Of a DNA stretch of 64,000 nucleotides, positions 21,395-47,199 are shown in pieces. Positions within the stretch are counted from its first letter, which is position 1; each line of letters begins with the position of its first letter. The DNA is taken from assembly GCA_963776915.1 (NCBI GenBank), contig CAVZPE010000008.1, forward strand, positions 34,124 through 98,123. Direction: 5' to 3'. Under the pieces are notes generated by a model. That model made no database searches. It was not told the DNA's origin and worked only from the letters and a program-made list of their open reading frames with translations. The DNA is from an uncultured Acidobacteriota bacterium. Its GTDB lineage: Bacteria > Acidobacteriota > Thermoanaerobaculia > UBA5066. The position numbers and the translations under genes are program-made.

Positions 21395-21397
21395 GAG

Positions 21398-21470
21398 CCC
21401 TGCCCGGGACCCGAAGGGCCGGGCCGGACCGGGCGCAGACAGGGTGGCGCCGCAGTCCGGCCCGGATGAC
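21398..21470. terminator. GC-rich hairpin between convergent genes
   Basis: GGGCCGGAC ... GTCCGGCCC inverted repeat between the HK stop (21394) and the DUF2231 gene stop (21486). Confidence 0.3.
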
Positions 21471-21485
21471 GGGCCGTCGTTGCGA

Positions 21486-22022: not shown

Positions 22023-22026
22023 CGGG

Positions 22027-22638: not shown

Positions 22639-22652
22639 CGGTGTGGACTCCT

Positions 22653-22694
22653 TTGCGCTCGATCGAGCGCAAGGGGCGTTTCAAGCCTCGTGCC
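22653..22694 (-). promoter_or_regulatory. candidate sigma-54 promoter (GGCACGAGGCTTGA on minus strand) plus perfect 20-bp palindrome TTGCGCTCGATCGAGCGCAA upstream of rubrerythrin
   Basis: Minus-strand motif with the same GGCACG-N4-TTGA spacing as the pilin promoters. The palindrome (22653-22672) sits between the motif and the AAGGAG RBS. Confidence 0.4.
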
Positions 22695-22793
22695 GAACGT
22701 CGCGCCGTGCCGGACTGCGTTCCTGCAGGGAGTTGCATCGGGCGCGGCCGCGTGCCGCGTCGAAATTTCCGGACGCCGTTCGGATTTTTCGAC

Positions 22794-24134: not shown

Positions 24135-25344
24135 GGGAGGCCTCCGGTTCGAGAGCGACGGACGGCGGAAGGGTGAGGGTGAACCGGACGTGCCCCGCGG
24201 CGTTCGAGGCGAGATGCACGTCTCCGCCGTGCTGCCTCGCAATCCCGCGCGCGATCGCGAGGCCGAGCCCGGTGCCGCGCGGACGGGTCGTGAAGAACGG
24301 CTCGAAGAGGCGCGGGACGGCCTCGGCGGGGACTCCCGGCCCGTCGTCCTCCACCTCGAGGGTCACGGAGTCCGGCCCGTGCCGGCAGACCAGGGAGACG
24401 CGGCCGCCGCGTCCGGCCGCCTCGACGCCGTTGAGGACGAGGTTCAGGAGAGCCTGCTGGAGCTGGTGCGGGTCGGCGTGCAGCACGAGCGCGTCGGGAG
24501 CCGAGCCTTCGACCGCGACGCCGCGGGCGTCCGCGTGCGCGCGGGCGAGCTCGACGACGTACCCGACGAGCGTCGTGGCGGCGGTCGGAGCCAGCCTCGG
24601 AGCCTTCGGGCCGGCGTAGGACAGGAAGTCGCCCGTGAGCGTCTCGAGGCGTCGGGCCTCCTGTGAGGCGATGGCACAGAGGGGCTCTGCGCCGGGGGTC
24701 GCGCAGCCCTTGCGTCGCGCGAGGTCGAGTGACGATACGATCATCGCAACCGGGTTCCGGATTTCGTGGGCGATCGCCGACGAGAGCCGTCCCACGGCGG
24801 CGAGCTTCTCCTCCTCCACGAGTCGATCGCGGGCCCGGCCCAGGTCGAGGAGGGACTCCGCGAGGCGAGCGCGTTCGTCACGGAGCTCCGAGACCAGGAT
24901 CGCGACGACGGCCGCCACCACGATGTAGATGAGGGCGACGCTCACCGCCTCGAACCACTCGTCCATCGTCACCGTGGCGTGAGTCCGCCCCCAGATGACG
25001 AGCTTGAGGAACGTCAGGCCGGTCACGATGGTGACGACGAACGCGATCCACGCGGGGGGCTTGCGGGCCGCGGCGGCGATGACCGGCAGGAGGAGAAGGA
25101 CGACGTAGTGGCTGTGCTCGAGCCCGCCCAGGAGCGAGAGGACGAACGCGAACGCGATGTTGAGCCCGATCGAGACGTCGGCCCACGCCGCAAGCGGTGC
25201 CGCCGCCGCCCCGTCGAGCCACGTGAGCTCGAGTGCCTGCATGAGAAAACGGCCCAGGAGCATGAAGAAGAAGGCGCGGGGCGGGGTCCCGAGGGCCGGT
25301 CCGAAGACGAGGTGGGCGACGACGATTCCCGCGAGCATCGTCAT
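24112..25344 (-). CDS. membrane sensor histidine kinase, partner of the downstream sigma-54 regulator
   Basis: Five or six TM helices, then HisKA (LSSAIAHEIRNP) and HATPase_c (DDGPGVP, GTGLGLAI). It overlaps the RR gene by 23 nt. Confidence 0.75.
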   Translation of the reverse strand: MTMLAGIVVAHLVFGPALGTPPRAFFFMLLGRFLMQALELTWLDGAAAAPLAAWADVSIGLNIAFAFVLSLLGGLEHSHYVVLLLLPVIAAAARKPPAWIAFVVTIVTGLTFLKLVIWGRTHATVTMDEWFEAVSVALIYIVVAAVVAILVSELRDERARLAESLLDLGRARDRLVEEEKLAAVGRLSSAIAHEIRNPVAMIVSSLDLARRKGCATPGAEPLCAIASQEARRLETLTGDFLSYAGPKAPRLAPTAATTLVGYVVELARAHADARGVAVEGSAPDALVLHADPHQLQQALLNLVLNGVEAAGRGGRVSLVCRHGPDSVTLEVEDDGPGVPAEAVPRLFEPFFTTRPRGTGLGLAIARGIARQHGGDVHLASNAAGHVRFTLTLPPSVALEPEASRGARAAG

Positions 25345-25495
25345 GTTCAGGAGGACGAGAAATTCCTCCTGTCGGCGGAGAGCGACGGCGCCGGAGGAGG
25401 GAGAAGGCAGATCGCGTGGAGGGCGGACCAGGCCAAAATCTTACGCTCGGAGGCCGGCGCAGCCGGCCATCGGACCGGGGCGGCTCCCGATCGCG

Positions 25496-26623
25496 TCAGC
25501 CGGCGGCCGGAGCCTGCGACGTCGGGCGGGCCGCGGCCTTCGTGCGCTTCTCGAGGAGGCCCTTGAACTGGTCCTTGTCGAGCGACTTCTCGAAGGCCTC
25601 CTCGGCGTCCACGGTGCCCGCGACGACGAGGTCCGCGAGGCTCTGGTCCATCCCGATCATCCCGGACGTGCGGCCCGTCTGGATGAGGGTGTTGATCATC
25701 GCCGTCTTGCCCTCGCGGATGTTGTTCGAGAGGGCGGACGACCCCCTCAGGACCTCGAACGCCGCGGCGCGGCCGCCGCCCTTCTTCTTGAGGAGCACCT
25801 GCGCGACGACGCCCTTGAGCACCTCGGCGAGCACCGTGCGCACCTGCTCCTGCTCCTCGGCCGGGAAGCTGTCGATGAGCCGGTCGACGGCCTTCGCGGC
25901 GGAGTTCGTGTGGAGGGTGCCGAAGACGAGGAGCCCGGTTTCGGCGGCCTGGAGCGCCATCGACATCGTGTCGAGGTCCCGGAGCTCGCCGACGAGGACG
26001 ACGTCGGGGTCCTCGCGGAGGGCCGCCTTGAGGGCGCCGGCGAACGTCGGCGTGTCGAAGCCGAGCTCGCGGTGGGAGATGACGGACTTCTGCGGCCGGT
26101 GGAGGAACTCGACGGGGTCCTCGATCGTGATGATGTGGGACGCCCGCGTCCGGTTGATCCAGTCGAGGAGCGCCGCGAGCGTCGTCGACTTGCCCGAGCC
26201 CGTGGGTCCCGTCACGAGGACGAGCCCGCGCGTGATGCGCGCGACGTTCGCGACGAGCGCGGGCAGCCCGAGCTCCTCGATCGCGAGGACGCGCGGCGGG
26301 ATCATGCGGAGGACGGCCCCGGAGCCGTGCTCCTGCCGGAAGAGGTTCACGCGGAAGCGCGCGATGTCGCCCATCGCGTACGCGAAGTCCGTGTCGCCCG
26401 TCGCCCGCCATTCGCGGAGCGGCTTCTCCGGCGCGATCGGAACGACGAGGCTCTCGTACTCCTCCTCCGTGAGCGTGCGCCACTTGAGGCGCTCGAGGTC
26501 TCCGTCCACGCGGATCATGGGCGGCGAGCCGACGGCGAGGTGGAGGTCCGACGCCTTCTTGTCGACCATGACCCTCAGGAGCTTGTCGACGCGGTTGACG
26601 CCCGGCTGGATGGAGGACTTCAT
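25496..26623 (-). CDS. pilT: twitching motility ATPase PilT
   Basis: ASDLHL, GPTGSGKSTT (Walker A), DPVEF, PilT signature. 375 aa. ATG overlaps the upstream stop (ATGA). Confidence 0.85.
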   Translation of the reverse strand: MKSSIQPGVNRVDKLLRVMVDKKASDLHLAVGSPPMIRVDGDLERLKWRTLTEEEYESLVVPIAPEKPLREWRATGDTDFAYAMGDIARFRVNLFRQEHGSGAVLRMIPPRVLAIEELGLPALVANVARITRGLVLVTGPTGSGKSTTLAALLDWINRTRASHIITIEDPVEFLHRPQKSVISHRELGFDTPTFAGALKAALREDPDVVLVGELRDLDTMSMALQAAETGLLVFGTLHTNSAAKAVDRLIDSFPAEEQEQVRTVLAEVLKGVVAQVLLKKKGGGRAAAFEVLRGSSALSNNIREGKTAMINTLIQTGRTSGMIGMDQSLADLVVAGTVDAEEAFEKSLDKDQFKGLLEKRTKAAARPTSQAPAAG

Positions 26624-27732
26624 TCGAGCGCCTGCCTCTCCTCGGCGAGGAGCTTCTCGAACGGCTCCTTCTTGACGGCCTTCTCCATCGCGAGCTCCGG
26701 GTCCACCTTGCCCTCCTCGCAGAGCTTCATGAGGGACTGGTCCATCGTGCACATGCCCGCGAGCTGGCCGGTCTGGAGCGCGGACGGGATCTGGTGCGTC
26801 TTGCCCTCGCGGATGAGCGCGGCGACCGCCGGCGTCGACCGGAGGATCTCGAACGCGGCGACGCGCCCGGCGAAGCCGCGCCGCGGGAGGAGCGCCTGCG
26901 AGAGCACGGCCTTCAGCGAGTCCGCGAGCATGACGCGGATCTGGCCCTGCTGGCCGGGCGGGAACGAGCTGATGACGCGGTCCACGGTGGAGGGCGCGTT
27001 CGTCGTGTGGAGCGTCCCGAGGACGAGGTGGCCCGTCTCGGAGGCCGTGATCGCGAGCGAGATCGTCTCGAGGTCGCGCATCTCGCCGACGAGGATGACG
27101 TCGGGGTCCTCGCGCAGGGCGGCCTTCAGGGCGCGCGCGAAGGAGGCGGTGTGGTGCGGCACCTGCCGCTGGTTCACGAGCGCCTCCTTGTTCAGGTGGA
27201 CGAACTCGACGGGGTCCTCGACCGTGATGATGTGGCAGGGCCGCGTCTCGTTGATGCGGTCGATGAGGGCCGCGAGGGTCGTGGACTTGCCGCAGCCCGA
27301 GGGCCCCGTCACGAGCACGAGGCCCTGCGTGAGCTTCAGGATGTCCGCGACCGTCGCCGGCGGGAGGCCGATCTCCTCGATCGTCGGAATCGTCTTCGGG
27401 ACGACGCGGAAGCAGGCGTCGAAGCCCCCGCGCTGCGAGAAGAAGTTCGCGCGGAAGCGTCCGAGGCCGGGCAGCTTGAGGCAGACGTCGATCTGGCGCT
27501 CGCGCTCGAGCCTCTTCCAGTCGTCCTCCGGCAGGACCTCGCGGATGAGCTGGGAGGCGCGGGCCCGCGTCATGACCGGCGCGTCGACGACCTCGAGGAG
27601 GCCCTGCATGCGCCGGTGCGGGATGAAGCCCGTCGCGAGGTGGAGGTCCGAGGCGCCGCGCTTGACCGTGTCCGCGAGGTACTCGACGAGGCGCGCCGAG
27701 TCGTTTCCCGCGAGCTCGACCGTCTGGACCTC
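26620..27732 (-). CDS. pilU: PilT/PilU-like retraction ATPase; no start codon in frame, N-terminus apparently continuous with the upstream HEAT-repeat ORF after a 1-nt shift
   Basis: GASDLHL, GPSGCGKSTT, HIITVEDPVEF. The ORF track starts at M 27609, but PilT-like homology (EVQTVELAGNDSARLVEYLADTVKRGASDLHLATGFIPHRR) continues upstream to about 27732 with no ATG/GTG/TTG. Confidence 0.7.
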   Translation of the reverse strand, partial: EVQTVELAGNDSARLVEYLADTVKRGASDLHLATGFIPHRRMQGLLEVVDAPVMTRARASQLIREVLPEDDWKRLERERQIDVCLKLPGLGRFRANFFSQRGGFDACFRVVPKTIPTIEEIGLPPATVADILKLTQGLVLVTGPSGCGKSTTLAALIDRINETRPCHIITVEDPVEFVHLNKEALVNQRQVPHHTASFARALKAALREDPDVILVGEMRDLETISLAITASETGHLVLGTLHTTNAPSTVDRVISSFPPGQQGQIRVMLADSLKAVLSQALLPRRGFAGRVAAFEILRSTPAVAALIREGKTHQIPSALQTGQLAGMCTMDQSLMKLCEEGKVDPELAMEKAVKKEPFEKLLAEERQALE

Positions 27733-29145
27733 GCGCCTCGACCTCGGGCAGCGCGTCGCGTGCCTCGGTCCCCTTGAGGACGCCGACGAGACGGCGCGCC
27801 TTCTCGCGCACGCGCCCGTCCAGGGCGGGCATCTGGGAGACGCGCGAGCAGATGCCGGCGATCTGCGTCGCGATCTTCTCGTCGGACGCGAGCTTCGCCA
27901 TCGAGTCGAGGATCTCCATCTGGACGTCGGGCTGCGTCACGGCGGCCTTGAACGCGTCGAGGAGCGGCTGCGCGGCCCGCGGGTCGCCGAGATCGCCGAG
28001 CGCGGACGCGGCCGGGATCGCGAGCTCCGGCTCCCTCAGGGCGGCGAGGACGCGCGTCAGGACGGCGTCGTCGCCCTTCCCGAGGCGGCCGAGGGTCTCG
28101 AGCGCGCGCGTCTTGACCCAGAAGTCCTTGTCGTCGACGAGCTGGACCCAGATCGGGAGGGCCTTCGCGTCCGCGAGCGCGAGCGTCATCTCGGAGGCCG
28201 CCTTGGCGAGCAGCGGGATCCGGCGTCGCGCGTGAGCTTCAGGAGCGCGTTCACGAAGCCCGGGAGCCCGTCCCGCGCCGTCTCGACGGCCCGGTCGCGC
28301 ACCCAGACGAACGAGCCCCGGAAGTGCTCGAGGATCCGCCGGGCGAGGAGATCCGGCGCGTAGGGGAGCAGGAGACCGACCGTCCCGTTGCGGACGAGGG
28401 CGTTCCCGTCCGCGAGGAGCGGGACGATCTCGGGCGTGTGGTCCTGCTTGGCGCCCGCGAGGAGCTTCTTGAGCGCCGCGAACGACGCCTCCATCACCCG
28501 CCCGCCGCCCGTCCGCGCCATCTGGAGGACGTCGGGGAAGTAGCTCTCGTTCGGGTTCTTCTCGAGGACCGCGAGCGCCGAGTAGCGGATCTCCTCGTTC
28601 TCGTCCTGCAGGAGAGGGACGGCGAGGCTCGCCGCGACGTCCGCGCTCTCCTCGAAGTTCATCTCGCTGACGGCCTTCAGGGCGCGGGCGCGCACGGTCG
28701 GGTTCGAGGCGGTCAGGACGCGCCGCGCGATGTCGAACGCGGTCTGCGCCGGAAGCTCGCGGGCGAGCTCGAGCGCCGCGAGGCGGGCGAAGTCGTCGCC
28801 GCGCGAGGCGATCTCCTGCAGGAAGGGCGGGAGCTGCGGCCCCGCGAGCTCCTTCAGGAACCGCATGACGGCCCGGCGCACGGCCTCCGAGCGCGTCTTG
28901 AGGAGCGGGACGAGCGCCTCGAGGCCGGCGCGGTCGTGCCGCCGCTTCAGGATCGCGAGGCCCGCGGTGCGGATCTCGGGCACGGAGTCGACGGCCGTCC
29001 AGGCGACCCACTCGACCTCGGGCTTCGGGAGCGACTGGAACTTCTCGAGGAGGTCCTTCTTCTGCTCCTCGCTCGACCACTTGTGCTCGCGCAGCTGCAC
29101 GACGAACGCCGGCTCCGACCGAAGCCCGCGCAGCTTCTCTAGCAC
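27733..29145 (-). CDS. HEAT/PBS-repeat protein (frameshift about 28215; may be fused to the pilU-like ATPase)
   Basis: Repeating ALxxLGDxxAxxxL HEAT-like units in two frames (ORF 28186..29340 and 27733..28230, the latter inside ORF 25496..29572). I chose the GTG at 29145 because the ATG 29340 N-terminus is GPGPGP low-complexity. No stop before the pilU-like region. Confidence 0.5.
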
Positions 29146-29325
29146 GTCGTCCCGGGCTCCATCGTGCCCGTATCGTAGCCGAGGCCGGCGGGCGAGCCCC
29201 TCCGGGGCGGCTCCGCTGTCCGGACACGTTGTTACGAAAAGTGTCAGGTGGCCGGAGGGCGGCCGGTGCCGTTCCGGGCCGGGCCCGGGACCAGGCCCTT
29301 GTGAGACAATGAGTTGCGATCCCGA

Positions 29326-29340
29326 ACGAGGCCCCGGCAC
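29326..29340 (+). promoter_or_regulatory. candidate sigma-54 promoter (GGCACGAAGCTCGC) upstream of minor pilin operon
   Basis: GG-N10-GC spacing satisfied. It lies 30 nt upstream of the ATG at 29370. The divergent region also carries the inverted repeat GACACGTTGTTACGAAAAGTGTC (29226-29248). Confidence 0.35.
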
Positions 29341-29369
29341 GAAGCTCGCGTAGAAGGGAGCGGGAATCC

Positions 29370-30119
29370 ATGGTGATGAGCGTTCCGAAGGCTGTCCGGC
29401 GCTTCCGCCTCCGCGTCCATCCGGTCCGCGGCGGGCGCGGCTTCTCGCTCGTCGAGCTCCTCGTCGTGATCGCGATCCTCGCGATCGTCTTCATCGTCGG
29501 GGGGATGCAGGTCACGAAGGCGTGGCAGCGCCAGAAGCTCCAGAGCGCGTCGGCGGACATCAAGATCCTCATGCAGCGCGCGCTGCCCGAGATGCAGCGC
29601 CGCGGGATGGCGACCTTCGTCCGGGTCGGGCCTCTCGTGACCGCCGGCGCCGTCCGTTACCTTCCGATCTACCTCATCGGCGACGCGAACGCGAACGGCG
29701 CGGTCGACGCCTTCGCGAACCCGCCGACGGTGGCGGCTCCGGACCTCCTGATCGACGAGTACGACATCATGGTGGTCGGCCAGACCGGCGTGAAGGGCAC
29801 GACGGGCGTGACGCAGGAATTCTGCCTGTCCGACGCGGACATCACGCAGATCCAGTCGACCCTCTGGTCGGACAACACGACGAACTGGACCAACGGGCGC
29901 ACCCTCATGTGCGACTTCCAGGGCCGGGCGATCGACATCGCGAGCGGCCTGCAGATCGCCGGGCCCGCCACGCTCGTCCTGACGCACGTGAACATGGTGG
30001 TCGGCGACCTCCTGCCGCGCACGCGCTACGTCCTCAGCATCAACCCCGTCTGGAGCGTCCGGATCCGGAAACAGGTCCAGGACGCCACGAGCACCTGGGT
30101 GGACCAGTCCGGTGGGTGA
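29370..30119 (+). CDS. minor pilin / pseudopilin (FimT/FimU/GspH-like), prepilin N-terminal domain
   Basis: Leader ...GGRG then FSLVELLVVIAILAIVFIV. 249 aa, intact. Confidence 0.7.
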   Translation: MVMSVPKAVRRFRLRVHPVRGGRGFSLVELLVVIAILAIVFIVGGMQVTKAWQRQKLQSASADIKILMQRALPEMQRRGMATFVRVGPLVTAGAVRYLPIYLIGDANANGAVDAFANPPTVAAPDLLIDEYDIMVVGQTGVKGTTGVTQEFCLSDADITQIQSTLWSDNTTNWTNGRTLMCDFQGRAIDIASGLQIAGPATLVLTHVNMVVGDLLPRTRYVLSINPVWSVRIRKQVQDATSTWVDQSGG

Positions 30120-30700
30120 CGCCGTGAAGGGCCGCCTCTCGTGTCGCCCGTCCCGGCGCCCCGCGCGCGGGTCGAGCTTCGTCGAGGTCCTCCTCGCGAT
30201 GACGATCATGGCGCTCGTCCTCGTCGGGATCCTCCAGATGTTCTCGGTCTCCCTCGTGATCAACAAGGGCTCGGCCGCCCGCACGCAGATGCTCTTCCGC
30301 TGCCAGCAGGTCGTCGAGAACATCCGGTACTTCTACTTCCTGAACCGCAACGCGACCGCCACGCCCGCGCTCCTGACGGACACGGCGGCACGTGTCCGCG
30401 TCGCCGATGACGGTGCCCGGGACGCTGCCGATTCCCCTGAGCGACGTCGCGCAGACGTTCCTGCCCTACGCCGCGACGGACGCGACGTGGCCCTACTGGG
30501 GCCCGACCGGGGCCAACGTCATGGAGCAGGAGAACGGCCCGTACAAGATCTCGTACACGATCCAGAGGGACGCGGCCCAGAGCACGCTGGGTCGTGACGG
30601 TGTCCGCGATCCCGACCGACGTCGGGACGGCGACGCGCTATTTCGGAGTCGGCCTCACGGGCGGCGGCAAGCGGGTGGACTATGTGGCGCAGTTCCAGTA
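30112..30700 (+). CDS. minor pilin (PilV-like), two frameshifts (about 30395, about 30590)
   Basis: SSFVEVLLAMTIMALVLVGIL prepilin helix in frame 1. It continues as TVPGTLPIPLSDVAQTFLPYAATDATWPYWGPTGANVMEQENGPYKISYTIQRDAAQSTLG in frame 2, then VTVSAIPTDVGTATRYFGVGLTGGGKRVDYVAQFQ stop in frame 3. Confidence 0.55.
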
Positions 30701-31978
30701 GGCGTCCGGTGCGCGCCGCGGGCGGCTTCACGCTCATCGAGGCGATGGTGTCGCTGCTGCTCCTCGTCATCGTCCTCACGGTCGCGATGACGATGCTCTT
30801 CCAGATGCGCGCCTTCGCCGAGCGGCAGCAGTTCTACATGCTGCCCCGCCAGACGGCGCGGCGGGTCGCCGACTACCTCTCGTACTACGTCGCGGGCGCC
30901 TCGGACCTGAACGACCGCACGACCCCGCGCACGAGCCCGAACGCGCTCGTCATGTACTACAACCTCGCGGGCGCCCCGGTCCAGGCGTCGTACGACAACC
31001 TCAGCGGCGGCGAGGCGGGCAACGCGATCACGGTGGCCGGCGTCTCGACGAAGTTCGGGGACATCGGGACGGACGTCCTCACGCTCGTCGCGCCCACGAA
31101 CCCGGCGAAGTACCTCGTGTCGCCGCCGTTCCCGGCGCTCGGGACCGGCGTCGATCTCTACTTCAACTTCCGGGGCGGATGCGCCGGAGGCGATGCGGCG
31201 AACATGACGGCGTTCCAGGCCGCGACGGGCTTCGACGGCACGCAGAGCGCGCTCCTCACGCTCATCGACCGCAACGGCAACTGGATCTACTTCCGCATCC
31301 CGGCGGCGGGCTACGTCGCCGGCGGCCTGTGCACGGACGTCACGACGTTCCGGAACATCCACGTCCAGGCCGACACCCAGGCGGCGGGCCTCCCGGCGCC
31401 TCCGAACGGCACGGCGAACCTCGCGGATCCCGTCTCGCTCGTCACGGGCATCCAGGTCATCTCCTTCCGCATCCTGACGGATCCGGTGGACAACGTGCCG
31501 AAGCTCCAGCAGAAGCTCGACCTCTTCGATCCCGCCACCGACAATCCGGGAACCGCGTTCGTGAACGTCATGGAGAACGTCGAGGACCTGCAGGTCACGT
31601 ACGTCTACGCGACCGAGCCCGCCGCCGGCACCGGGACGTTCTGGAACACGGCGAGCCAGACGCTCGCCGGGGACGCCGTGCCCCCGCAGGCCGGGCCCGT
31701 GGCCATCCCCGGCCCGACGGACATCACGAACGTGATCGGCATCCGGTTCTCGGTCACGTCCCGCTCGCCGCGGCTCAGCCTCGGCGCCCAGGGCCTGACG
31801 AACGTGCGCAGCACGGAGGACCTCTCGACGACGACGAGCCTGCACTTCCGGCCCGCGTCGGAGAACCACCCGGTGACGATGGACCCGTTCGTGCCGACGC
31901 GGCCCGCTCTACGACCTCTTCGACCACTATCGGGCGACGGCGATGCTCATGCTGCGCAACCGGACGCTCGGGAGCTGA
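30682..31978 (+). CDS. minor pilin PilW-like (frameshift about 31900)
   Basis: Leader ...AAGG then FTLIEAMVSLLLLVIVLTVAM. The long body runs to ...PVTMDPFVPTRPA. The C-terminus LYDLFDHYRATAMLMLRNRTLGS is in the +1 frame, with its stop at 31976-31978. Confidence 0.6.
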
Positions 31979-31983
31979 CGGCG

Positions 31984-32634
31984 ATGACATCGATGACCAC
32001 GAAGAACCGCGGCAGCGCCCTCGTCTCGGTCATCCTCGTGCTCCTCGTCCTCACGATCGTGGGCGTCGGCATCGCGTACTTCACGTCGATGGAGGACCGC
32101 CTCTCGGGCAACACGCGGATCGCGAAGGCGGCGTTCTACGCCGCGGACGCGGGCCTCCGCCGCGCCGAGCTCGCGTTGAGCGACACGGCCGGCCTCACGA
32201 GCACCTGCGCGCCGATCACGCTCACCCAGATCCTGAGCACCGGCTCGACGCCCGTGCTCAACGTGCCGGGCGGCGGCAACGCCGCGATCCCCCTGGACCT
32301 CACGAGCTTCAACGCGGTCGGGTGCCTCCCGGCGGTGGACCAGATCAAGTACCTCGACATCCCGGTTCCCGTCGTGGCCGGGACGCCGGTGGTGGACCGC
32401 GCGACGTACTCGCTCTACGTGAGGAACAACCTCGACGACACGGCGGGCACGCCGACGACCGACGCGGACAACATCGTCAACATCGTGGCCGGTCGGGACG
32501 GTGCAGCTCGTGGCCGGCACGTCCTTCACGCGCATCCTCGAAGAGCAGGTCATCCTCTCGGTGGGAGGTTCGTTCGGCAGCAGCCAGAAGAACCTGAACG
32601 CCGGAGGCACGGGCACCGCGCAAAGGAGAGCTCC

Positions 32635-32638
<4 letters not shown>
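31984..32638 (+). CDS. PilX-like pilus assembly protein (frameshift about 32495)
   Basis: N-terminus MTSMTTKNRGSALVSVILVLLVLTIVGVGIAYFTSMEDRLSGNTRIAKAAFYAADAGL (PilX N-domain). The C-terminus ...GTVQLVAGTSFTRILEEQVILSVGGSFGSSQKNLNAGG is in another frame. The stop overlaps the pilY1-like ATG (ATGA). Confidence 0.6.
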
Positions 32639-37816
<5,178 letters not shown>

Positions 37817-37849
37817 GCGCGCCGGGCCGGTCCCGATAAGATCCCGCGC

Positions 37850-39062
37850 ATGGACGCGGGGCCGGCCCGTCGGCGCTCCACCGGCTTCTCCCTGGCGGAG
37901 CTGCTCCTGACGCTGGTCGCGCTCGGCCTCGTCGTGTGGGTCGCGCTGCGGATCGTGGACCGCGGGACCCGGATCCCCGCCGACGCGCCGGCGACGTCCG
38001 GGCCCGAGGCGGTGCTCGGGGCGGCGGTCCGGACGATCGCGAAGGACGTGCGGGCCGCCGCGGCGGGAGGCCTGCCGGGCGAAGAGGCCCTCCGGCCCGT
38101 CGCCGACAACACCCGGCCGCCTTCGCCCTCCTCCTACCGTACGGTCGCGGGCGGGATCGTGACCGTCCGGCCCGGCACGGACCAGCTCGGCCTGAGGGGG
38201 GTGGTCCGGACGCCGTTCCTCGCCCTGGACCCGCGGTCTCCCGGAACGGCGGATTCCGTGTCCGACCGGATCCGCTCCCGGCCGACGGAGGTGCCGGTCC
38301 GCGCGCCGGCGAGCCGGGCCCGTCGGCGCCGTGCGCGCACGCCTCGGCGAGGCGCCGGCCGGCGCCAAGACGTTCTTCCTCGTCCGGGACGCCGCGGGGC
38401 GGTGGGCCGTGGGGCGCGTCGCGTCCGTCGCCGCGGGGGCGCCGGGCGGCCCGCTCGACCTCGTCCTCGACTTCGCCGACGCCGACGCGCGCGCGCGAAA
38501 CGCGGGACCGGACGCCGCGTCCGCCCTGGGCGATCCCGTCAGCGGAGGCGTCTTCGACGACCTCGTGTGGTTCGTCGCGGAGGGCAACCCGGGCAACCCG
38601 CCCGACTACGCGAGCGCGAGCGATCCCGATTCGCTTCGCCATCCGCATCCGTACCTCGCCGTCGCCGCCTCGGCGGGGGGCGGCCGCTGGGACGTCCGCG
38701 GCTCGGGGGAGGACGTCGAGGACTTCCAGGTGGCCTGGGGGCTGTCGGGGCCCACCGGGGCGCTGGAGTGGCACGGCGACACGCCGGGGAGCCAGGCCCC
38801 GGCCGCCGGTGATCTCGTCGATCCCCAGGGCCATTCGCGGCTCCGGGCGCTCCGCCTCGCGCTCGTCGCCCGTTCGCCGCAGCGTCTTCCGCGCAGCTCG
38901 GGGTCGCCGGCCCCGGAATTCGCGGTCCCGCTGAACGGCCCCGTGCCGGGCACGCTCCCGGGCGCGGCGCCGATCGGATGGGACCCCTTCCCGCAGCGGC
39001 GGATCCGGTTCGACCGCGAGACGCGCGAGGAGCTCGTCACGCTGCCGCCGCCCGCCCCCTGA
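37850..39062 (+). CDS. prepilin-type N-terminal domain protein (pilin-like, about 400 aa; frameshift about 38310)
   Basis: STGFSLAELLLTLVALGLVVWVAL N-terminal pilin helix. The C-terminal part (ORF 38331..39062) is protein-like, ending RIRFDRETREELVTLPPPAP. Confidence 0.55.
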
Positions 39063-39111
39063 CCGGCGCGGGTGTAAAATCACGGGGCATATCGTCTGGA
39101 GGGAGGGCCTC

Positions 39112-40014
39112 ATGCGTCGGCTTCTGATCGCCACGGCGCTCTTCGCGGGCTGGGCGGCTTTCGCCTCGGCCGACGAGATCTGGCTGAAGGACGGCCGCGC
39201 GATCGCGACGAACAAGCCGGTCGTCACGAAGGGCCGGAACGCCCTCATCACGACGACCGACGGCGTCCTCGTGTCGGTCCCGCTCTCGGAGATCGACCAG
39301 GCGAGGACGGCCGAGGCGAAGGCGCGCGCGGCCGCCCCGACGCCGGCGCCGACCCCGAACCTGATGAAACCGATGTCGCCCGCGGAGGCCGCCCGGCAGA
39401 AGTCCGGGAAGAAGGCCGTCGTCGTCCTCACGGACGATTCCGTCGCGCACGGGTTCGGCGACGAGGGAGGCGAGGCCAAGGCGTCGGACGGCGAGGGCCG
39501 CGTGGACGTCGCGAACACGTCGGCGACGCGCACCCAGGACGGTTACGCGTTCACGGGCACGGTCATCAACAACGGGTCGGCGCCCGTCTCGGGCGTGTCC
39601 GTCACGATCGAGTCCGTCGGAAGGGACGGCAAGACGTTCTCGTCCGCGTACGCGAACGTGGCGAAGGACTCGCTCGAGCCCGGCGAGAAGTCCACGTTCA
39701 CGGCGAGCGCGCCCCTCGAGGGCGAAGCGGCCTCGTTCCGGTACATGCCGCGCTGGCAGGTCCCGATCCCGCCGAAGACGGCGGACGAGAAGGCGAAGGG
39801 CGCCGCGCCGGGCGGCGCGGCCAAGGGCGAGGGCTCGGCCGAGGCGGAGCCGACGGCGGCTCCGACGCCGGCCCCCGTGCCGACGCTCGTGCCGATCCCT
39901 CGGCCCGACGTGGCCCCGCCGACGGCGAACGCGCCGGTGGGCAACCCGGCGAGCGGGGCGTTCCTCCCGCCGCCGGACGGATCGCAGACGACGGCCAAGC
40001 CGCCGTCCACCTGA
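39112..40014 (+). CDS. secreted hypothetical protein
   Basis: Signal peptide MRRLLIATALFAGWAAFASA. 300 aa, intact, with an Ala/Pro-rich tail. Confidence 0.6.
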   Translation: MRRLLIATALFAGWAAFASADEIWLKDGRAIATNKPVVTKGRNALITTTDGVLVSVPLSEIDQARTAEAKARAAAPTPAPTPNLMKPMSPAEAARQKSGKKAVVVLTDDSVAHGFGDEGGEAKASDGEGRVDVANTSATRTQDGYAFTGTVINNGSAPVSGVSVTIESVGRDGKTFSSAYANVAKDSLEPGEKSTFTASAPLEGEAASFRYMPRWQVPIPPKTADEKAKGAAPGGAAKGEGSAEAEPTAAPTPAPVPTLVPIPRPDVAPPTANAPVGNPASGAFLPPPDGSQTTAKPPST

Positions 40015-40036
40015 CCGCGCGGCCGGACCGGCCCTG

Positions 40037-41398
40037 ATGAGCGCGGAGATCCTGCTCGTCGAGGACCGCGAGTCCCTGCGCGCGATGCTCGCGGAAACGC
40101 TCGCGGGCGAGGGCTACACCGTGGAGCCCGTCGCGACGGGAGAGGAGGCCGTGCGGCGCCTGGGCGAGGGCCGCCGCTACGGTCTCGTCCTGACGGATCT
40201 CAAGCTGCCGGGAGCCGACGGGATCGCCGTCCTTAGGGCCGCGATCGCCTCGGACCCTTCGGTCCCGGTCGTCGTCCTCACCGGATTCGGCACCGTCGAG
40301 ACGGCCGTCGTCGCGATGAAGGCCGGCGCGGCGGACTTCCTGAGCAAGCCCGTCGACCCGGACCTCCTGCTCCTGCTCGTCGAGCGGCACGTGCGCGCGC
40401 GCCGCTCGGCCGTGGCGCGCGTCCTCCTCGCCGAGGAGGCCGGGCTTGCGGGGATGCCCGAGATCGTCGGGTCCTCGCGCGCCCTCGCCGAGGCCCTCGA
40501 ACGGGTGCGCCAGGCGGCGCCCTCCGACGTCACGGTCCTCCTGACCGGGGAGTCGGGCACGGGCAAGGAGCTCTTCGCGCGCGCTCTCCACGCTCTCTCT
40601 CCCCGCGCGCCCGGGCCCTTCGTCGCGGTGAACGTCGCGGCGCTGCCGGAGAGCCTCGTCGAGAACGAGCTCTTCGGCCACGAGCGCGGCGCCTACACGG
40701 GCGCGACGGACCGCCGCGCGGGGCGCTTCGAGCTGGCGGACGGCGGGACTCTCTTTCTCGACGAGATCGGCGAGCTCCCGGCCGCCGCGCAGGCGAAGCT
40801 CCTCAGGATCGTCGAGGAGCGGACGTTCCTGCGTGTGGGCGGGACCGCGTCCATCACCGTCGACGTGCGCCTCGTCGCCGCGACGAACAGCGACCTCGCG
40901 CAGCGCGTGAAGGCCGGCGCCTTCCGCGAAGACCTCTTCTACCGTCTCGACGTGTTCCCCGTGCGGCTCCCGCCGCTGCGCTCGCGGACCGAGGACATTC
41001 CGGCTCTCGCGAAGGCCTTCGCCGCGGCCGCCGCGCGGCAGGTCAAGAAGCGGGACGTCGCGCTCTCCCCGGGGGCGCTCGAGCGGCTCGCGGCGCACGA
41101 CTGGCCCGGGAACGTCCGCGAGCTCCGCAACGTGATCGAGCGGGCGGTCCTGCTCGCGCCCGGCGGCGTCGTCCGCCCCGCGGACATCGTCGTGGGTCTG
41201 CCGGGCGAGAGCCCGGCACCTTATCCGTCCCTGGACGGCACGCTCGAGGAGGCCGCCGAACGGTGGCGGCGGGCGGGGGAAGCCGCCCGGATCCGGCGCG
41301 CGCTCGACGAGACCGGCGGGGACAAGCCCCGCGCGGCCGAGGAGCTCGGCGTCAACGTCCGGCGCCTCGTTCAGCGCATGAAGGAGCTGGGTCTTTGA
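40037..41398 (+). CDS. sigma-54-dependent response regulator (NtrC/PilR family)
   Basis: Receiver domain, AAA+ (GESGTGKE, ENELFGHERGAYTGA), and C-terminal Fis-type HTH. 453 aa, intact. Confidence 0.8.
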   Translation: MSAEILLVEDRESLRAMLAETLAGEGYTVEPVATGEEAVRRLGEGRRYGLVLTDLKLPGADGIAVLRAAIASDPSVPVVVLTGFGTVETAVVAMKAGAADFLSKPVDPDLLLLLVERHVRARRSAVARVLLAEEAGLAGMPEIVGSSRALAEALERVRQAAPSDVTVLLTGESGTGKELFARALHALSPRAPGPFVAVNVAALPESLVENELFGHERGAYTGATDRRAGRFELADGGTLFLDEIGELPAAAQAKLLRIVEERTFLRVGGTASITVDVRLVAATNSDLAQRVKAGAFREDLFYRLDVFPVRLPPLRSRTEDIPALAKAFAAAAARQVKKRDVALSPGALERLAAHDWPGNVRELRNVIERAVLLAPGGVVRPADIVVGLPGESPAPYPSLDGTLEEAAERWRRAGEAARIRRALDETGGDKPRAAEELGVNVRRLVQRMKELGL

Positions 41399-41479
41399 CC
41401 TCGAGGCGGGAACCCGTCATGCGGGTTCCCGCACTCTCCGCTCGGCGTGCTTCGCCCGGCTGCGCTTGCGCTCGCCGGC

Positions 41480-42870
41480 TCAGCCGCCTGCGCCGGCGGA
41501 ACCGACACCCCGGAGCGCCTCTGCGAGCTCCGCGTCCTCCTCCTCCGCGACGCTGCGGAGGTCGAGAAGGACGCGGCCGTCCTCGATCCGTGCGACGACC
41601 GGGAGCGCTCCCGCGCGGAGGGCCGCGGCGAGCGCGTCGGCGGTGAGTCCGCTCCGCCTCAGGGCGACCGCCGCGGACGGGAGAGTCGACTCGGCGCCGG
41701 CGCCACCGCCCGCGATCGCCGTCGACTCCACGGCCTCGGCCTCGAAGCCGGCGGTCCGGGCCAGCGCGGCCAGCCGTTCCGCACGGACTCGCAGGGAATC
41801 CAGGGACAGCGCCGACCATCCGGAAGAACGGGACCTCGCCGCTCCGGCCCGAGAGGTGGAGGTCGAGCGTGGCGGCCAGTGCGCCGAGAACGAGCTTGTC
41901 CGGCCTCAGGGCGCGCGCGAGGGGGTTGCGTGCGGCGCGCGCGACGAGGTCCGGCGCGGCCGAGGAGGATTCCCGCCTGCGGGCCGCCGAGGACCTTGTC
42001 GCCCGAGAAGCACACGAGGTCGGCGCCCGCGTCGAGCGCCTCGAGCGGAACGGGCTCGTCGGCGAGGCCGGGCTCGTCGAAGCGGCGGGGCGCGCCCGAG
42101 CCCGCGTCGTAGACGAGGGGCACGCCCCGCGCGCGCGTGAGCGCGGCGAGGTCCGCGAGGGACGACCTCCTCCGTGAACCCGACGATCCGGTAGTTCGAG
42201 GGGCGCACCTTGAGGACCGCGCCGGCGCCCGCGTCGAGCGCCTCGACGTAGTCGCGCGCGGTGGTCCTGTTCGTCGTCCCGACCTCGAGGAGCGAGGCGC
42301 CGCTCTTCGCGAGGATCGACGGGACGCGGAAGTCGCCGCCGATCGCGACGAGCTCGCCGCGCGAGACGGCGACGGGCTTCCCGTTCGCGAGCGTGTCGAG
42401 GGCGAGAAGGAGGGCGGCGGCCGCGTTCGTGACGGCGAGCGCGTCGACGTCCGGGCGGCCGCGCGCGAAGAGCTCGAGGAGGAGCGGGCGGACGTGCTCG
42501 CCGCGGCGCCCGCGCCCGCCGGTCGCGAGGTCGAACTCGAGCGTCGAGAAGCCCGCGGCGCGCGCGGCGGCGTCGACGGCGGCGCGCGGCCAGCGGGGCG
42601 CGCCCGAGGTTCGTGTGGAGGAGGACGCCCGTCGCGTTCACGACGCGCGCGGGGCCCGGCACGGGGCCGCCCGGCGAGGCGGGCGTCCGCGTCGCGGAGG
42701 ATCGCGTCCTCCGGGGGGCCGGCGGGCGCCTCGCGCCAGCGCGCCGCGGCCTCGCGCAGGGCGGCCTTGGCGCGCTCGCGGCCGTGGCGCTCGCGACAGG
42801 GCGCGGCCGGCCGGGCTCCCGAGGAGCCGGTCCATCGGCGGGGGTCGCGTGCCGGGTCCATGGTCACGGA
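41480..42870 (-). CDS. selA: L-seryl-tRNA(Sec) selenium transferase, fragmented by several frameshifts
   Basis: SelA motifs are spread over four minus-strand frames: VVNATGVLLHTNLGRA (42662 ORF), RPSNYRIVGF (42208 ORF), DLVCFSGDKVLGGPQAGILLG (42867 ORF), and the C-terminus ALPVVARIEDGRVLLDLRSV (41731 ORF). Confidence 0.6.
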
Positions 42871-42888
42871 ATGTAGACTACTTTGTGG

Positions 42889-43517
42889 CCATGCCGGTCT
42901 CGATCGAGCGCGACCTCGACCTCCTCGAGAGGAGCCTCACGGCGCTCAAGGTCGACTACGAGCGGTTCTTCACGGGCGAGCTCCGCACGCCGCCCGTGGC
43001 GGCCCGCCGGAAGGTCGACGAGCTGCTGCGGCGCGTCGGCAACGTCGAGATCGAGCGCGGCGGCCGAGCGGTTCCGTCTCCAGGCGCTCGAGGGCCGGTA
43101 CACCGCGATGACGGAGCTCTGGGACAAGCGCCTGTCGGCGAAGGAGGAGGGGCGGGGCCTCTTCCGCGTGGTCCGGCACGGCCGCCGCCGCCGCGAAGGC
43201 GCCTCCGCCTGCGCCCCCGCCCGCCCCGGCGGCCGAAGTCGGTCTCCTCCGACGGCGAGAGCTCGACCTCCGTAAAAGCGGTCGGACGGGGCGACATGAA
43301 GTCGCTCTTCGACCGTTTCTGCGCGGCGCGCGCGTCGGCCGGGGAGGACGTGTCGAAGCTCCGGTACGACCGATTCGAGGACCTCGTGAAGAAACAGGCC
43401 GCCGAGATCCGCCGGACGACGGGCGCGACACGCCTCGCGTTCGAGGTCCAGACCCGCGAGGGGAAGGTCCGTCTCGTCGGCCGGCCGCTGCCGGCGCCCG
43501 CGAAAGGGAATCCATGA
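42889..43517 (+). CDS. conserved hypothetical protein (two frameshifts)
   Basis: MPVSIERDLDLLERSLTALKVDYERFF..., then a middle part in ORF 42883..43275 (AAERFRLQALEGRYTAMTELWDKRLSAKEEGRGLF), then the C-terminus MKSLFDRFCAARASAGEDVSKLRYDRFEDLVKKQAAEIRRTTGATRLAFEVQTREGKVRLVGRP. Confidence 0.45.
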
Positions 43518-44500
43518 CGATCGCCCGCTTCCTGCGTCCCGCCGCCGTCCTCGCTCCTCGCGCTCGCGATTCCCGCGGCGGCCAAGGACGTCTACAAGGC
43601 CTTCCTCGACCCGGGCATTCCGCAGCACAAGGCGACGCTCGACATCCTCGCGCGCCTGGAGCAGACCCCGAACGACGCGACGCTCCACAACGACCTCGGC
43701 TGCCTGATCGCGCGGGACGGCTTCTGGCGCGACGCCCTGCGCGAGTTCGAGACGGCCGAGAAGCTCGACAAGAAGGACGGGCGCGCTCCCTACAACGCGG
43801 GTCTCGTCGAGACGACGCGCGGGGAGTGGGGCGCGGCGCGCTCCGCGTTCAAGAAGGCGGTCTCGCGGAACCCGGGCAACTGGCCCGCCTGGTGGATGCT
43901 CGGGTTCGCCGAGGAGAAGCTCGGGAACCCGGACGCGGCCGTGGACGCGTACGCGACCGTCGCTGCGCGTCGACACGTCGCTCTTCGACGTGAAGCGCAA
44001 TCCCTACGCGGTGCAGTCGCGTCTGAAGGCGCGCGTCCTCCTCAAGACGTACGACGCCCGCTTCGCCCGCGCCGCCCTTCCGGTCACGGAGCAGCTCGCC
44101 CGGCCCGACATCCTGACCTCGTTCCAGGCCGGCCACGTGTCGGTCACGTCGGCGCCCGGCGCCGCCGTTCCCGAAGACGCCCTCGTGCGGACGTCGCGCG
44201 GCAGCGGGCCCGGCGGCGGCGCCGTCGCGGTCCCCTCCTCGGGCGGCGCGGTCGTGACGTCCGTTCCCCCGGTGAGCTCGAGCCGTCCCGCGGCGCCGGC
44301 GGCACCCGTGACCGGCGCGCCCGCGGCGCCGGGCCGGCCCGGCGGCCTGGAGGAGGCTCCGCCGTGGTTCCCCGCAGACGTCGCCCGCCGGGCCCGCGCC
44401 CGTGCGGACGCCCCGCCCGGCGGGCAACCCGGATCCCGGGGGCGCCTCCGCCCGACCCCGGCCCCGACGGCCCGCCGCCCCGGGCCCCGGCATCGGCTGA
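43514..44500 (+). CDS. TPR-repeat lipoprotein/secreted protein (at least two frameshifts; 3' end uncertain)
   Basis: Signal-peptide-like MTIARFLRPAAVL(LLALAIPAAA), restored by a 1-nt shift near 43550. TPR-like body (NDLGCLIARDGFWRDALREFETAEKLDKKDGRAPYNAGLVETTRGEWGAARSAFKKAVSRNPGNWPAWWMLGFAEEKLGNPDAAVDAYATV). A Pro/Ala-rich tail follows in another frame. Confidence 0.45.
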
Positions 44501-44504
44501 CGAG

Positions 44505-45847
44505 TCAGCCCTTCCACTTCGGCACGAAGAGCGTCGGGGCGCCGGCACCGCCGCCGGCGGCCGGGATGAACTTCAGGTCGTCCCCGACCGCCTCGACGCC
44601 GCGCAGGAGCTCCGAGAGCCGCCCCGAGAGGAGCGTCTCGGAGACGGCGTCGGTCGCGCGCCCCTTCTCGACCCAGTAGCCGGCGACGTGCAGGCGGAAC
44701 CGGTCCGCCGCGAGGTCGACCTGGGGCCGCGAGAGAAGCACGGCCGCGTAGAACCCCTTGACGAGGGCGCGGAGGAGGTCGAGGGGCGGAACGCCGGACG
44801 AGGGGTCGACGAAGAAGTTCGTGACGCCGATCGCGGGCGGCTCGGAGAACGCGCGGCGGAACGCGTTGCCCGTGGGCTCGGTCCCGAGACGCTGCGCGGC
44901 GGCGACGTCCGTGAGGCGCGACGCGAGGCGCCCGCGGTCGAGGACGACCGTCCGGCGCTGCGGGGTGCCCTCGCCGTCGTGCGTGGTCCGCACGGGACCG
45001 CCCGGCGCGCTCGCGGCGTCCACGAGGGTGAGGGCCGGCGCGGCGAGCGCGTCGCGCCCCTCGCGCGTTCGGGCCGCGAGGAGGCCGTCCTCGTCCTCCC
45101 CGAAGAAGGCCGGCGCCACGCGTGCGACGAGCGGCGCGGCGACGAGCGGATCGAGCAGGAGGTCCCAGCGCCCCGGCTCGAGGGGCCGGCCCTTCAGCGG
45201 GAGGAGCACGCGGTCGACCGCGTGGTGCGCGAGGCGCGCGAGCGCGAGCTCCTCCGGGCGCGCGGCGGCCGCGACGACGCGCGCGGACGCGCGGCCCGCG
45301 CCCGTGCGGGCCGACACCGTCGCGACGAGGGTCGCGAAGGCGCTTCCGAACGTGACGTCGCGCCCGGCCGTCGTCGCGACGCGCTCGGTGCGCGCTCCGA
45401 GCGCGAGCGCCGCCTCGCCGAGGAGGACCGCGCCGTCGCTCGCGGCCGCGAGCGCGCGGCGGAACGCGACGAGGAGCGCGCGCGCGGCGATCTCGTCGGG
45501 ACGCGGGGGCGGCGCGAGGGGCGCGGGGGGACGCGGCTTCGGGCAGCGGCGGGCGACGGGCGGGCTCCGCGGCGCGTGCGGGCCCGGGCCAGGAGGAGGC
45601 GCGCCTCCGCGGGCAGGGCCCGGGCGCCGTCGGCCCCGGACGCCGCGAACGACGTGCGGCCCGCCCGGAACTGGCGCACGGCGAAGCCGCGCTCGGACGA
45701 GACGCTCGCGTGGAGGCCGCGCTCGTCCTCGACGAGCTCGAGCGCCGTCCCGCGGCGCTCGTAGACCTCGCCGCCCTCGCCGTCGTGCGCGAAGGAGGAC
45801 GCCGCGGCGAGGACGTCCTCGAAGAGGCCGTCGGAGGGCGCCCTCAC
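44505..45847 (-). CDS. pmbA: TldD/PmbA-family metalloprotease PmbA (frameshift about 45550)
   Basis: The N-terminus starts at GTG 45847 ([49 protein letters not shown]; the ORF track begins at ATG 45844, MRAPSDG...). The C-terminal half is in ORF 44505..45317 (...GFYAAVLL...LKFIPAAGGGAGAPTLFVPKWKG). Confidence 0.6.
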
Positions 45848-47199
45848 GGCCGCCCCCGAGGGCCGTGAGGCCGCGCAGGAGAACGGCCGGGGAGGCGCCG
45901 CCGACGGGCAGCGGCTCGCCGCGCTTGACGCACAGGCCGAGGCCGCTCGCGGGCGCGGCGGCCTCGCCCGGCTCGCCGTAGAGCTGGCGCAGCGCCGTCA
46001 GGACGTCGGACGTCAGGAGGAACGGGCGCGACCGGGGCGCCGAGGCGCCCGCGCCGCACGAGGTCGGCGCTCTCGACGAAGAGCGAGAACCGGCCGGACT
46101 CGGGATCCGTGTGGCCGGCCGAGATCTCGCGGACGTAGAGGCCGTTCCCGCAGGCGTCGAGGAGCTCGTCGCGGCTCGCGCGGCCGGCCGCCACGAGGAG
46201 CGTCGAGAGGCGGGGGCGCGGAGGCCGGCGGAAGTCGCCGCAGCGGCCGTGCCCGTTCGAGGCGGCGCCGGACGTCCGGCGGTCCGTGAGGACTCCCGTC
46301 ACGCGGCCCTCCTCGAGGAGCGGGACGGGACGCGCGGGCGTCCCCTCGTCGTCCGCGAGATAGGAGCCCGGCAGGTCGCGGCGCGTCGGGTCGCACGTCA
46401 CGGAGAACCCGGGCGGCGCGACCGCGGCGCGCGCGACGCGCGTGAGGACCGAGGAACGCTCGCCGCTCTCGGCCTCCAGCGGGTGGCCGACCGCCTCGTG
46501 CCAGAAGACGGAGGCCGCTTCCGGCGAGAGGACGACGTCCACCCGGCCGTCGGGCGCGCGGTGCGCCGGCACGGGTCGCGTCGCCTCCGCGAGGGCCTTC
46601 GCGAAGGCGTCGCACGCGGCGGAAAAGGGGGCCGAGGACTGGAAGGCGAAGCTGCGGCTCGCGGCCGTCCGGCGCAGCACGCCCGTCGCCTCCAGCCGGG
46701 TGGCGTCGCCGCACGGGACGAAGTCCCGGCCCGTGACGACCGCGCGCGAGACCGTCACGCGCGCGATCGCGAGCGTCAGCGAGAGGCCGCGGGGGTCGGG
46801 GAGGGCGCGGGCGAGCGCGGCCGCGAGCTGCGTCGCGCGTCCCTCCTCGTCCGGGCCGGACGGACCGCGATCGTCGCGGCGGGGCGGCGGGTTCTTCGTC
46901 TTGAAGAACGGCGCGCCGCCGGCGCGCTGCGAGGCCTCGCGCACGGCCTCGCGAAGCGCCTCGGCTCCGTCGCCGTCGCAGGCGACGAGGAGCGAGTCCC
47001 TGCCCTTCGAGACGCGCACCGCGGTCCCGCGCTCCTCGACGATCGACGGCGCCTGGAGCCCCGCCTCGGTCGCGCTCCAGGTGATCGCGCGGCGCCGCTC
47101 GCGGAAGGCCTCGCCTCCCTCGCCGCGGCGCAGCATCCCCGAGACGATGCGGACCGCGTCCTCCGCGTCCTCGCGGAAGACCGTGACGTCGTCGCTCAA
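45844..47199 (-). CDS. tldD: metalloprotease TldD (two frameshifts near the 3' end, one in a GGGGG run)
   Basis: HEAVGHPLE motif. The C-terminal segment [55 protein letters not shown] is in another frame. Its stop TGA overlaps the pmbA GTG. Confidence 0.65.

Follow-up and report, generated by a model that had tools for sequence, protein, structure and literature searches.

PilU is the PilT-dependent accessory retraction motor among the ATPases of the PilT family, and it stacks head-to-tail on PilT (bioRxiv 10.1101/2025.10.30.685630; PMC6762196; for Myxococcus xanthus PilU, PMC13584747). Stacked head-to-tail hexamers of PilT and PilU have been modelled and partly shown, and PilU requires PilT to reach the machine (bioRxiv 10.1101/2025.10.30.685630; PMC13584747). 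Another arrangement of adjacent PilT paralogs, MXAN_6705 and MXAN_6706 of M. xanthus, is conserved across Myxococcales (PMC13584747). Here, we compare with these systems a locus in a stretch of 64,000 nucleotides (nt; hereafter, the window), with a G+C content of 72.6%, from an uncultured Acidobacteriota bacterium of the Thermoanaerobaculia lineage UBA5066 (GenBank assembly GCA_963776915.1, contig CAVZPE010000008.1, positions 34,124 to 98,123). In all likelihood, positions 29145-26620 on the minus strand hold a single gene for a protein of 840 amino acids (aa), in which an N-terminal domain of HEAT repeats is joined to a PilT-type ATPase (HEAT-PilT); the gene is broken by insertions that probably arose during assembly, is coupled to a neighbouring pilT and, we infer, serves in a two-motor arrangement. 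The new aspect is a PilT-type motor with a large HEAT N-terminal domain, consistently paired with a plain PilT; the frameshifts themselves are most likely artefacts.

A conserved HEAT-PilT fusion

The HEAT-PilT fusion is a real single-gene architecture, conserved and widespread. A database search with the reconstructed protein recovered more than 90 protein clusters of 837-843 aa, 54-94% identical to the query at 100% coverage, all of which combine HEAT (PF13646/PF02985) and T2SSE (PF00437) domains in one open reading frame (ORF), and it is this one-ORF arrangement that establishes the fusion as genuine. Where names are given, these proteins, from Thermoanaerobaculia, are called 'PilT/PilU family type 4a pilus ATPase' or 'twitching motility protein PilT'. 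More remote full-length relatives (827-844 aa) share 31-42% identity. When 1.84 billion cluster representatives were searched with a profile, matches colinear over their full length, at 814-1336 aa, made up most of the best 150 (representatives at 50% identity); among the full-length fusions are a 956-aa protein named 'Deltaproteobacteria bacterium' and one of 1336 aa named Archangium sp., which also carries an MshEN domain. Intact fusions in a single ORF are likewise present in the syntenic contigs L002, L003, L084 and L087. A scan of genome contigs with the family alignment, for which the patterns were taken from ATPase motifs only, yielded 80 loci of generic PilTs and none of the fusion. 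The nearest HEAT-only matches are generic HEAT proteins, with E values of 1e-11 or weaker, and the HEAT N-domain is thus so far known only within the fusion. The architecture is already represented in public databases, labelled only as PilT/PilU family, and our literature searches found no description of a HEAT-PilT protein.

A sequence-only reading of the window had proposed a fusion of approximately 840 aa, which is borne out by the more than 90 orthologous clusters of PilT homologues with an N-terminal HEAT domain and by the 840-aa ORF obtained after correction. The peptide that it had reconstructed across the junction, ...LPEVEAEVQTVELAGNDSARLVEYL..., is the exact sequence of ortholog P0001. 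Its description of the protein as an unusual retraction ATPase is apt relative to the PilTs that have been studied, but not with regard to metagenomes, where the architecture is common, as most of the best 150 representatives attest.

In the window, the gene is read in alternating frames. Three-frame translation and a hidden Markov model (HMM) of GC3 periodicity concordantly placed the coding signal in frame -a at 28221-29155, in frame -b at 27734-28220 and again in frame -a at 26624-27733, which amounts to two frame changes between 29145 and 26620 on the minus strand, neither junction having a usable stop or start. The same alternation emerged from tblastn with an intact 840-aa ortholog, residues 1-307, 310-470 and 466-840 of which aligned to 29145-28225, 28216-27734 and 27747-26623, respectively. 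Translation would begin at a GTG (29145-29143), 11 nt upstream of which lies GGAG, with a predicted N-terminus, MLEKLRGLRSEP, that agrees with those of orthologs P0001 and P0002, and would end at a TGA (26620-26622). Codons 1-308 (28222..29145, minus strand, frame -a), with Pfam HEAT_2 and HEAT matches, encode the HEAT-repeat domain; codons ~309-470 (27734..28219, minus strand, frame -b) cover the remainder of the HEAT repeats and the start of a flexible linker; and codons 471-840 (26620..27732, minus strand, frame -a), with a Pfam T2SSE match, specify the PilT-type ATPase module, comprising the N2 domain and the ATPase core. Homology to PilT precedes the first available start codon, as the sequence-only reading had noted: the alignment with Pseudomonas aeruginosa PilT (3JVU, residues 3-345) begins at ~27690, 27 codons upstream of the ATG at 27609, and frame -a holds no ATG, GTG or TTG between the upstream stop (28186-28188) and this ATG. 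Nor does the HEAT frame, -b, contain a stop ahead of the ATPase, again as had been claimed; it is open down to 25496.

The bases responsible for the frame changes were located by comparison with L001, which is ~97% identical in the fusion gene and 91% identical over 9 kb, with L002 and L003, two identical copies on short-read-style contigs with an intact 840-aa ORF, and with the JGI contig L087. At the upstream site (28212..28221, minus strand), three- and four-way alignments to the DNA of L001, L002 and L003 reveal two single-base insertions, 9 nt apart and with a net shift of +2: a G at ~28221 (GCCG[G]ATCC) and a T at ~28212 (CGC[T]GCTC). The relatives read GAC GCC GAT CCC GCG CTC (D-A-D-P-A-L) here. 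At the junction site within the linker (27733..27735, minus strand), DNA alignments show a single inserted C, GAGG[C]GCGAGG, which brings the reading back to frame -a; the relatives have GAG-GGC/AGC/GCN-GAG at this position. The single-nucleotide indel postulated near 27735 is accordingly this insertion, but the one postulated at about 28215 turns out to be two. All three lesions are extra bases in the window, for a net shift of +3, and their deletion yields an ORF of 840 codons with zero internal stops, whose corrected upstream site is identical to the L001 reading, ...LTRDADPALAKAASEM.... None of the three insertions is present in L001, L002, L003 or L087; across the 27735 junction, a pattern scan of JGI metagenomes yielded one contig, L087, in the in-frame form only, which is thin evidence in favour of sequence errors. 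L001 itself (ERZ25039489 contig_96906, 10001-13171) has different frameshifts of its own in the fusion gene, where bases have been added opposite positions 28396 and 27469 of the window, and two calls, of 232 and 262 aa, divide its pilT; several public assemblies of this high-GC lineage are thus error-prone at the fusion-gene locus.

Origin of the frame breaks

The HEAT-PilT gene lies at the left edge of an 18-kb tract of poor sequence (27733..46021) with about two dozen frameshift-like switches, as delineated by the GC3 HMM with a boundary test, tblastn and Pfam. By the HMM and boundary test, 26 of the 29 frameshift-like transitions in the window fall within 27.7-46.0 kb (binomial p ~1e-11). 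When intact L002 proteins were used as tblastn queries, frame switches were found in a PilY1-like gene (~7), three minor-pilin-type genes, a pilin gene and a partial gene at 37.8-38.7 kb. Pfam matches tell the same of selA, where SelA model positions 30-157 and 160-226 fall in different frames (41953-42578), and of the TldD/PmbA genes, which are likewise split across frames (PmbA_TldD model). The flanks of the tract (1-27 kb and 47-64 kb) are intact, with full-length Pfam matches, and the borders are sharp. Low-complexity GC-rich repeats occupy 32900-34750, where the PilY1-like gene begins or ahead of that point; according to the frame chosen, they translate into runs of the DADADRD or the VGVGV type. 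In this region, the HMM does not assign strand and frame reliably, and relatives align poorly.

Gene calls within the 18-kb tract should not be taken as biology. A stop-free ORF of 1358 codons (25496-29572, minus strand, in the pilT frame) covers part of the HEAT gene and, in the wrong frame, the ATPase region, and was rejected as a real gene, being stop-free only by virtue of the high G+C content. Chimeric proteins of this kind have been called in related assemblies (P0090, 506 aa; P0100, 509 aa), and the same caution applies to them.

Private indels of 1-2 nt were counted in a three-way alignment of 9 kb. The window has 23 (16 insertions and 7 deletions) and the frameshift-ridden L001, with a contig name of the 'contig_N' type, has 29 (22 insertions and 7 deletions), against a total of 7 in the k141-named L002, whose ORFs are intact. 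Of the substitutions in the fusion gene that are assigned to the window lineage, 29 are synonymous and 3 non-synonymous, where a neutral ratio of non-synonymous to synonymous changes would be 2.9 (p ~2e-14), corresponding to a ratio of substitution rates (dN/dS) of ~0.04. Strong purifying selection on the fusion gene has thus been maintained in the window lineage.

These data bear directly on whether the strain has recently lost HEAT-PilT through real frameshifts, perhaps together with the neighbouring PilY1 and minor-pilin genes, the gene being a young pseudogene. Three independent lesions in one gene, and frameshifts in the adjacent pilus accessory genes as well, are what such a loss would leave behind. 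Yet the housekeeping genes selA and tldD/pmbA are broken in the same tract, the borders of which are sharp and the flanks clean, and the insertions are absent from L001, L002, L003 and L087. Bacterial gene decay is expected to favour deletions, whereas the lesions here are all single-base and the private short indels lean to insertions, as in the error-prone L001. Neither a dN/dS near 1, nor nonsense codons in the corrected ORF, nor a confinement of lesions to a dispensable gene was found, and we consider recent loss improbable. Programmed ribosomal frameshifting at the two sites could, in principle, yield the fusion by recoding, given that the net shift is +3 and two events would restore the frame. 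However, every relative keeps its frame at both sites, neither GCCGGATCCCGCTGC nor GAGGCGCGAGG contains a slippery heptamer, the first site would require two shifts 9 nt apart, and unrelated genes nearby carry dozens of similar breaks; frameshifting of the prfB/dnaX type, by contrast, is marked by a site conserved among orthologs and by a slippery or stimulatory sequence. Recoding is effectively refuted by this lack of conservation, and we assign it next to no probability.

A split of the gene into separate units is hardly more plausible. The HEAT ORF would then end at the TGA at 28186, a second ORF would start from the overlapping ATG at 28189, and a truncated pilU would be translated from the ATG at 27609; the ATGA stop/start overlap at 28186-28189 and the ATG at 27609 do lend themselves to such a division. 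The middle ORF, however, is stop-free until 25496 and would amount to a nonsense read-through into pilT, and an ATPase translated from 27609 would miss at least 27 conserved N-terminal residues of PilT, including the GASDLHL segment, whereas in the relatives the other frame continues across 28186-28189 as ...KAASEMTLAL.... In none of these relatives does a stop codon end the HEAT ORF ahead of a separate pilU start, and we regard fission as very unlikely. A compensated double frameshift that gives a functional variant was rejected, the segment between the two sites containing stop codons in frame -a.

Taken together, the breaks throughout the tract, the involvement of housekeeping genes, the indel pattern, the 29:3 signature of selection and the restriction of the insertions to the window indicate that the three frameshifts are most likely consensus errors of the assembly rather than biology, and that the organism very probably makes the full-length protein. 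The 18-kb tract, as a whole, looks like a local collapse of consensus quality. A methylation motif was considered as the cause, the first insertion creating GGATCC around GATC, and was dropped since the other window-specific insertions have no common motif or homopolymer context.

The ATPase and HEAT halves compared with known motors

Judged by its sequence, the ATPase half is of the PilT type and retains every catalytic motif. Ortholog P0001, which is 94% identical, matches TIGR01420 (PilT/PilU family of type IVa pilus ATPases) with 435.1 bits (cutoff, 319.1) over model positions 2-341 of 343, a score practically equal to that of the plain pilT next to the fusion gene (439 bits). The ATPase piece of the window scores 331 bits against P. 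aeruginosa PilT (3JVU) and 222 bits against PilU (9n32), with 46-48% identity to PilT structures and 35% to PilU, and a profile built from the family alignment also ranks PilT chains first among solved structures. The sequence-only reading had spoken of a PilT/PilU-like ATPase: membership in the PilT/PilU family holds, PilT being the closer of the two. PilB models remain far below their cutoff (145 vs 676 bits). On the minus strand, Walker A (GPSGCGKST, 27306-27280), the Asp box (ITVEDPVEF, 27228-27202), Walker B (DPDVILVGEMRD, 27108-27073) and the His box (ETGHLVLGTLHT, 27039-27004) are followed by AVAALIREGK (26829-26800) at the position of the PilT AIRNLIRE motif. The first four of these are invariant across the family alignment of 45 sequences and are present in the window copy.

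The C-terminal 355 residues correspond end to end to PilT of P. aeruginosa (3JVU) and Geobacter metallireducens (PilT4, 6OJX), at 46-48% identity and a TM-score of 0.9 for the model, and retain the Walker A and B motifs, the Asp and His boxes and the ...LIRE(G/D)K segment. Canonical PilTs, however, carry AIRNLIRE, measure ~345-375 aa and have no extra domain, whereas HEAT-PilT has AVAALIRE, is 840 aa long and bears a HEAT solenoid of 465 residues plus a linker, for which we found no counterpart on solved or studied PilTs. HEAT-PilT resembles PilU in being a second PilT-family ATPase encoded beside pilT, and it is this resemblance that makes a two-motor arrangement the natural model. The two differ in that HEAT-PilT is nearer to PilT in score and identity (48% vs 35%), in gene order, the paralog preceding pilT whereas PilU genes are described downstream of it (PMC13584747), and in the position of the appendage, which is N-terminal in HEAT-PilT, whereas PilU contacts PilT through its C-terminal region.

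The closest studied parallel may be MXAN_6705/MXAN_6706, which is likewise an adjacent pair of PilT paralogs, one member of which has a long N-terminal extension; moreover, pairs of HEAT-PilT and PilT are found in the Archangium sp. and 'Deltaproteobacteria bacterium' contigs. The extension of MXAN_6705, here compared by description only, is said to be intrinsically disordered rather than composed of HEAT repeats (PMC13584747). Extension ATPases of the PilB/MshE type, with their MshEN and GSPII domains, are similar in that a secretion-ATPase hexamer is fitted with N-terminal accessory domains for docking or regulation, and the Archangium relative combines MshEN, HEAT and PilT; by contrast, the core of HEAT-PilT is of the PilT type and its appendage is HEAT, not MshEN or GSPII.

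The HEAT half matches PF13646 (HEAT_2) with 84.1 bits, against a cutoff of 27.7, in five stretches, and its repeats are of the PBS-lyase type (PF13646, PF03130), with matches to designed alphaRep chains at E values down to 1e-84. It falls far below equivalog cutoffs (NblB, 44 vs 300). NblB, CpcE/CpeY and alphaRep have the same type of repeat as the N-domain of HEAT-PilT, but what they share is repeat chemistry only, with no functional link. An AlphaFold2 monomer model of ortholog P0001 (mean predicted local distance difference test score, pLDDT, 81.8) predicts ~29 consecutive helices that form a solenoid over residues 2-464 (pLDDT mostly 84-94); residues 465-484 form a linker that lacks structure, and 485-840 adopt a PilT fold. 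The HEAT half has both multiple HEAT_2 matches and a predicted alpha-solenoid. The modelled PilT fold superposes on G. metallireducens PilT4 (6OJX) with a target-normalised TM-score of 0.9. A Foldseek search of the model against the PDB matched the ATPase half only and yielded nothing specific on the HEAT half.

The pair with pilT and a possible two-motor module

The sequence-only reading had placed the fusion just upstream of a canonical pilT, and an intact pilT is indeed found there (25496..26623, minus strand; 375 aa; TIGR01420, 439 bits), encoding a protein 92% identical to its counterpart in L002. Its ATG overlaps the TGA of the fusion gene (ATGA). A PilT of 358-376 aa directly follows the fusion gene in all seven loci compared (the window, L002, L084, L085, L086, L088 and L089), among which are four closer relatives, Thermoanaerobaculia where named, and the Archangium and 'Deltaproteobacteria' contigs; the 4-nt overlap is seen in four of the seven, including the window. 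In the window, L002 and L084, the pair resides within a pilus cluster with genes for pilins, prepilin peptidase, minor pilins and PilY1. A rough neighbour-joining tree groups the fused ATPase domains and the partner PilTs into matching sub-clades, consistent with a long-standing pair. In the Archangium sp. contig (L088, 5001-9011; GCA_016793525.1), a 1336-aa protein with MshEN, HEAT and PilT domains precedes a PilT of 358 aa, and in L086 and L089 a Ser/Thr protein kinase is encoded after the pair; these associations hint at inputs to the module through cyclic di-GMP and phosphorylation.

Other regulatory genes lie in the surroundings of the pilus genes. Approximately 4 kb between pilT and a PAS histidine kinase (21394-25479), which are missing from the syntenic L002 and L087, encode a DUF2231 membrane protein, a sigma-54-dependent response regulator (22797-24134) and a histidine kinase (24115-25344), the latter two of which may constitute a PilS/PilR-like pair beside the pilus genes. 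A second sigma-54-dependent response regulator, of the NtrC type, is located downstream of the PilY1-like region (40037-41395); the gene before it (39112-40011) encodes 300 aa without a Pfam match.

The protein would consist of an alpha-solenoid of PBS-lyase-type HEAT repeats (~1-465), a linker of ~20 residues and a complete module of the PilT-type hexameric secretion ATPase (~485-840), and its gene would be translationally coupled to the 375-aa pilT through the ATGA overlap. By analogy with PilT, the ATPase half would assemble into a hexamer that hydrolyses ATP, with six HEAT arms tethered to its N-terminal face as putative protein-binding scaffolds. Through contacts with the hexamer of the partner PilT, with the pilus base or with a regulator, such arms could dock the motor or control it. 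HEAT-PilT is probably one half of a two-motor module, which, with the partner PilT as the other half, would be comparable to PilT-PilU in retraction.

Several points weigh against the overall interpretation offered here, that of a single coupled HEAT-PilT gene with assembly errors and a two-motor role. The sharp bounds of the 18-kb error tract call for an explanation of their own, three lesions in one gene of 2.5 kb would also fit a pseudogene, and, on the sequence alone, a real and very recent inactivation keeps some, though low, probability. In the structural model, the placement of the HEAT half relative to the ATPase is uncertain (predicted TM-score, 0.53). The functional model, from the formation of a hexamer to the role in retraction and the binding by HEAT arms, is drawn from the analogy with PilT-PilU, and in the other four loci (L085, L086, L088 and L089) the pair lies outside any pilus cluster, which makes a role unrelated to pilus retraction possible.

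A more far-reaching proposal, which we put forward tentatively and hold to be doubtful as yet, is that HEAT-PilT and the coupled PilT represent an ancient and distinct two-motor module, in which the six HEAT arms act on the partner hexamer as a clamp or gate, or bring in a regulator, possibly, as the pair is often found away from pilus loci, for a function other than classical type IVa pilus retraction. If true, clamping or gating by HEAT arms would be a mode of motor coordination unlike the C-terminal contact of PilU. How several PilT-family motors are combined to generate or tune retraction force is an active question, for which models of PilT-PilU stacking date only from 2025-2026. The consistent pairing of a solenoid-bearing PilT with a plain PilT, in Thermoanaerobaculia as well as in the Archangium and 'Deltaproteobacteria' contigs, offers a new and testable case of the coordination or regulation of these motors.

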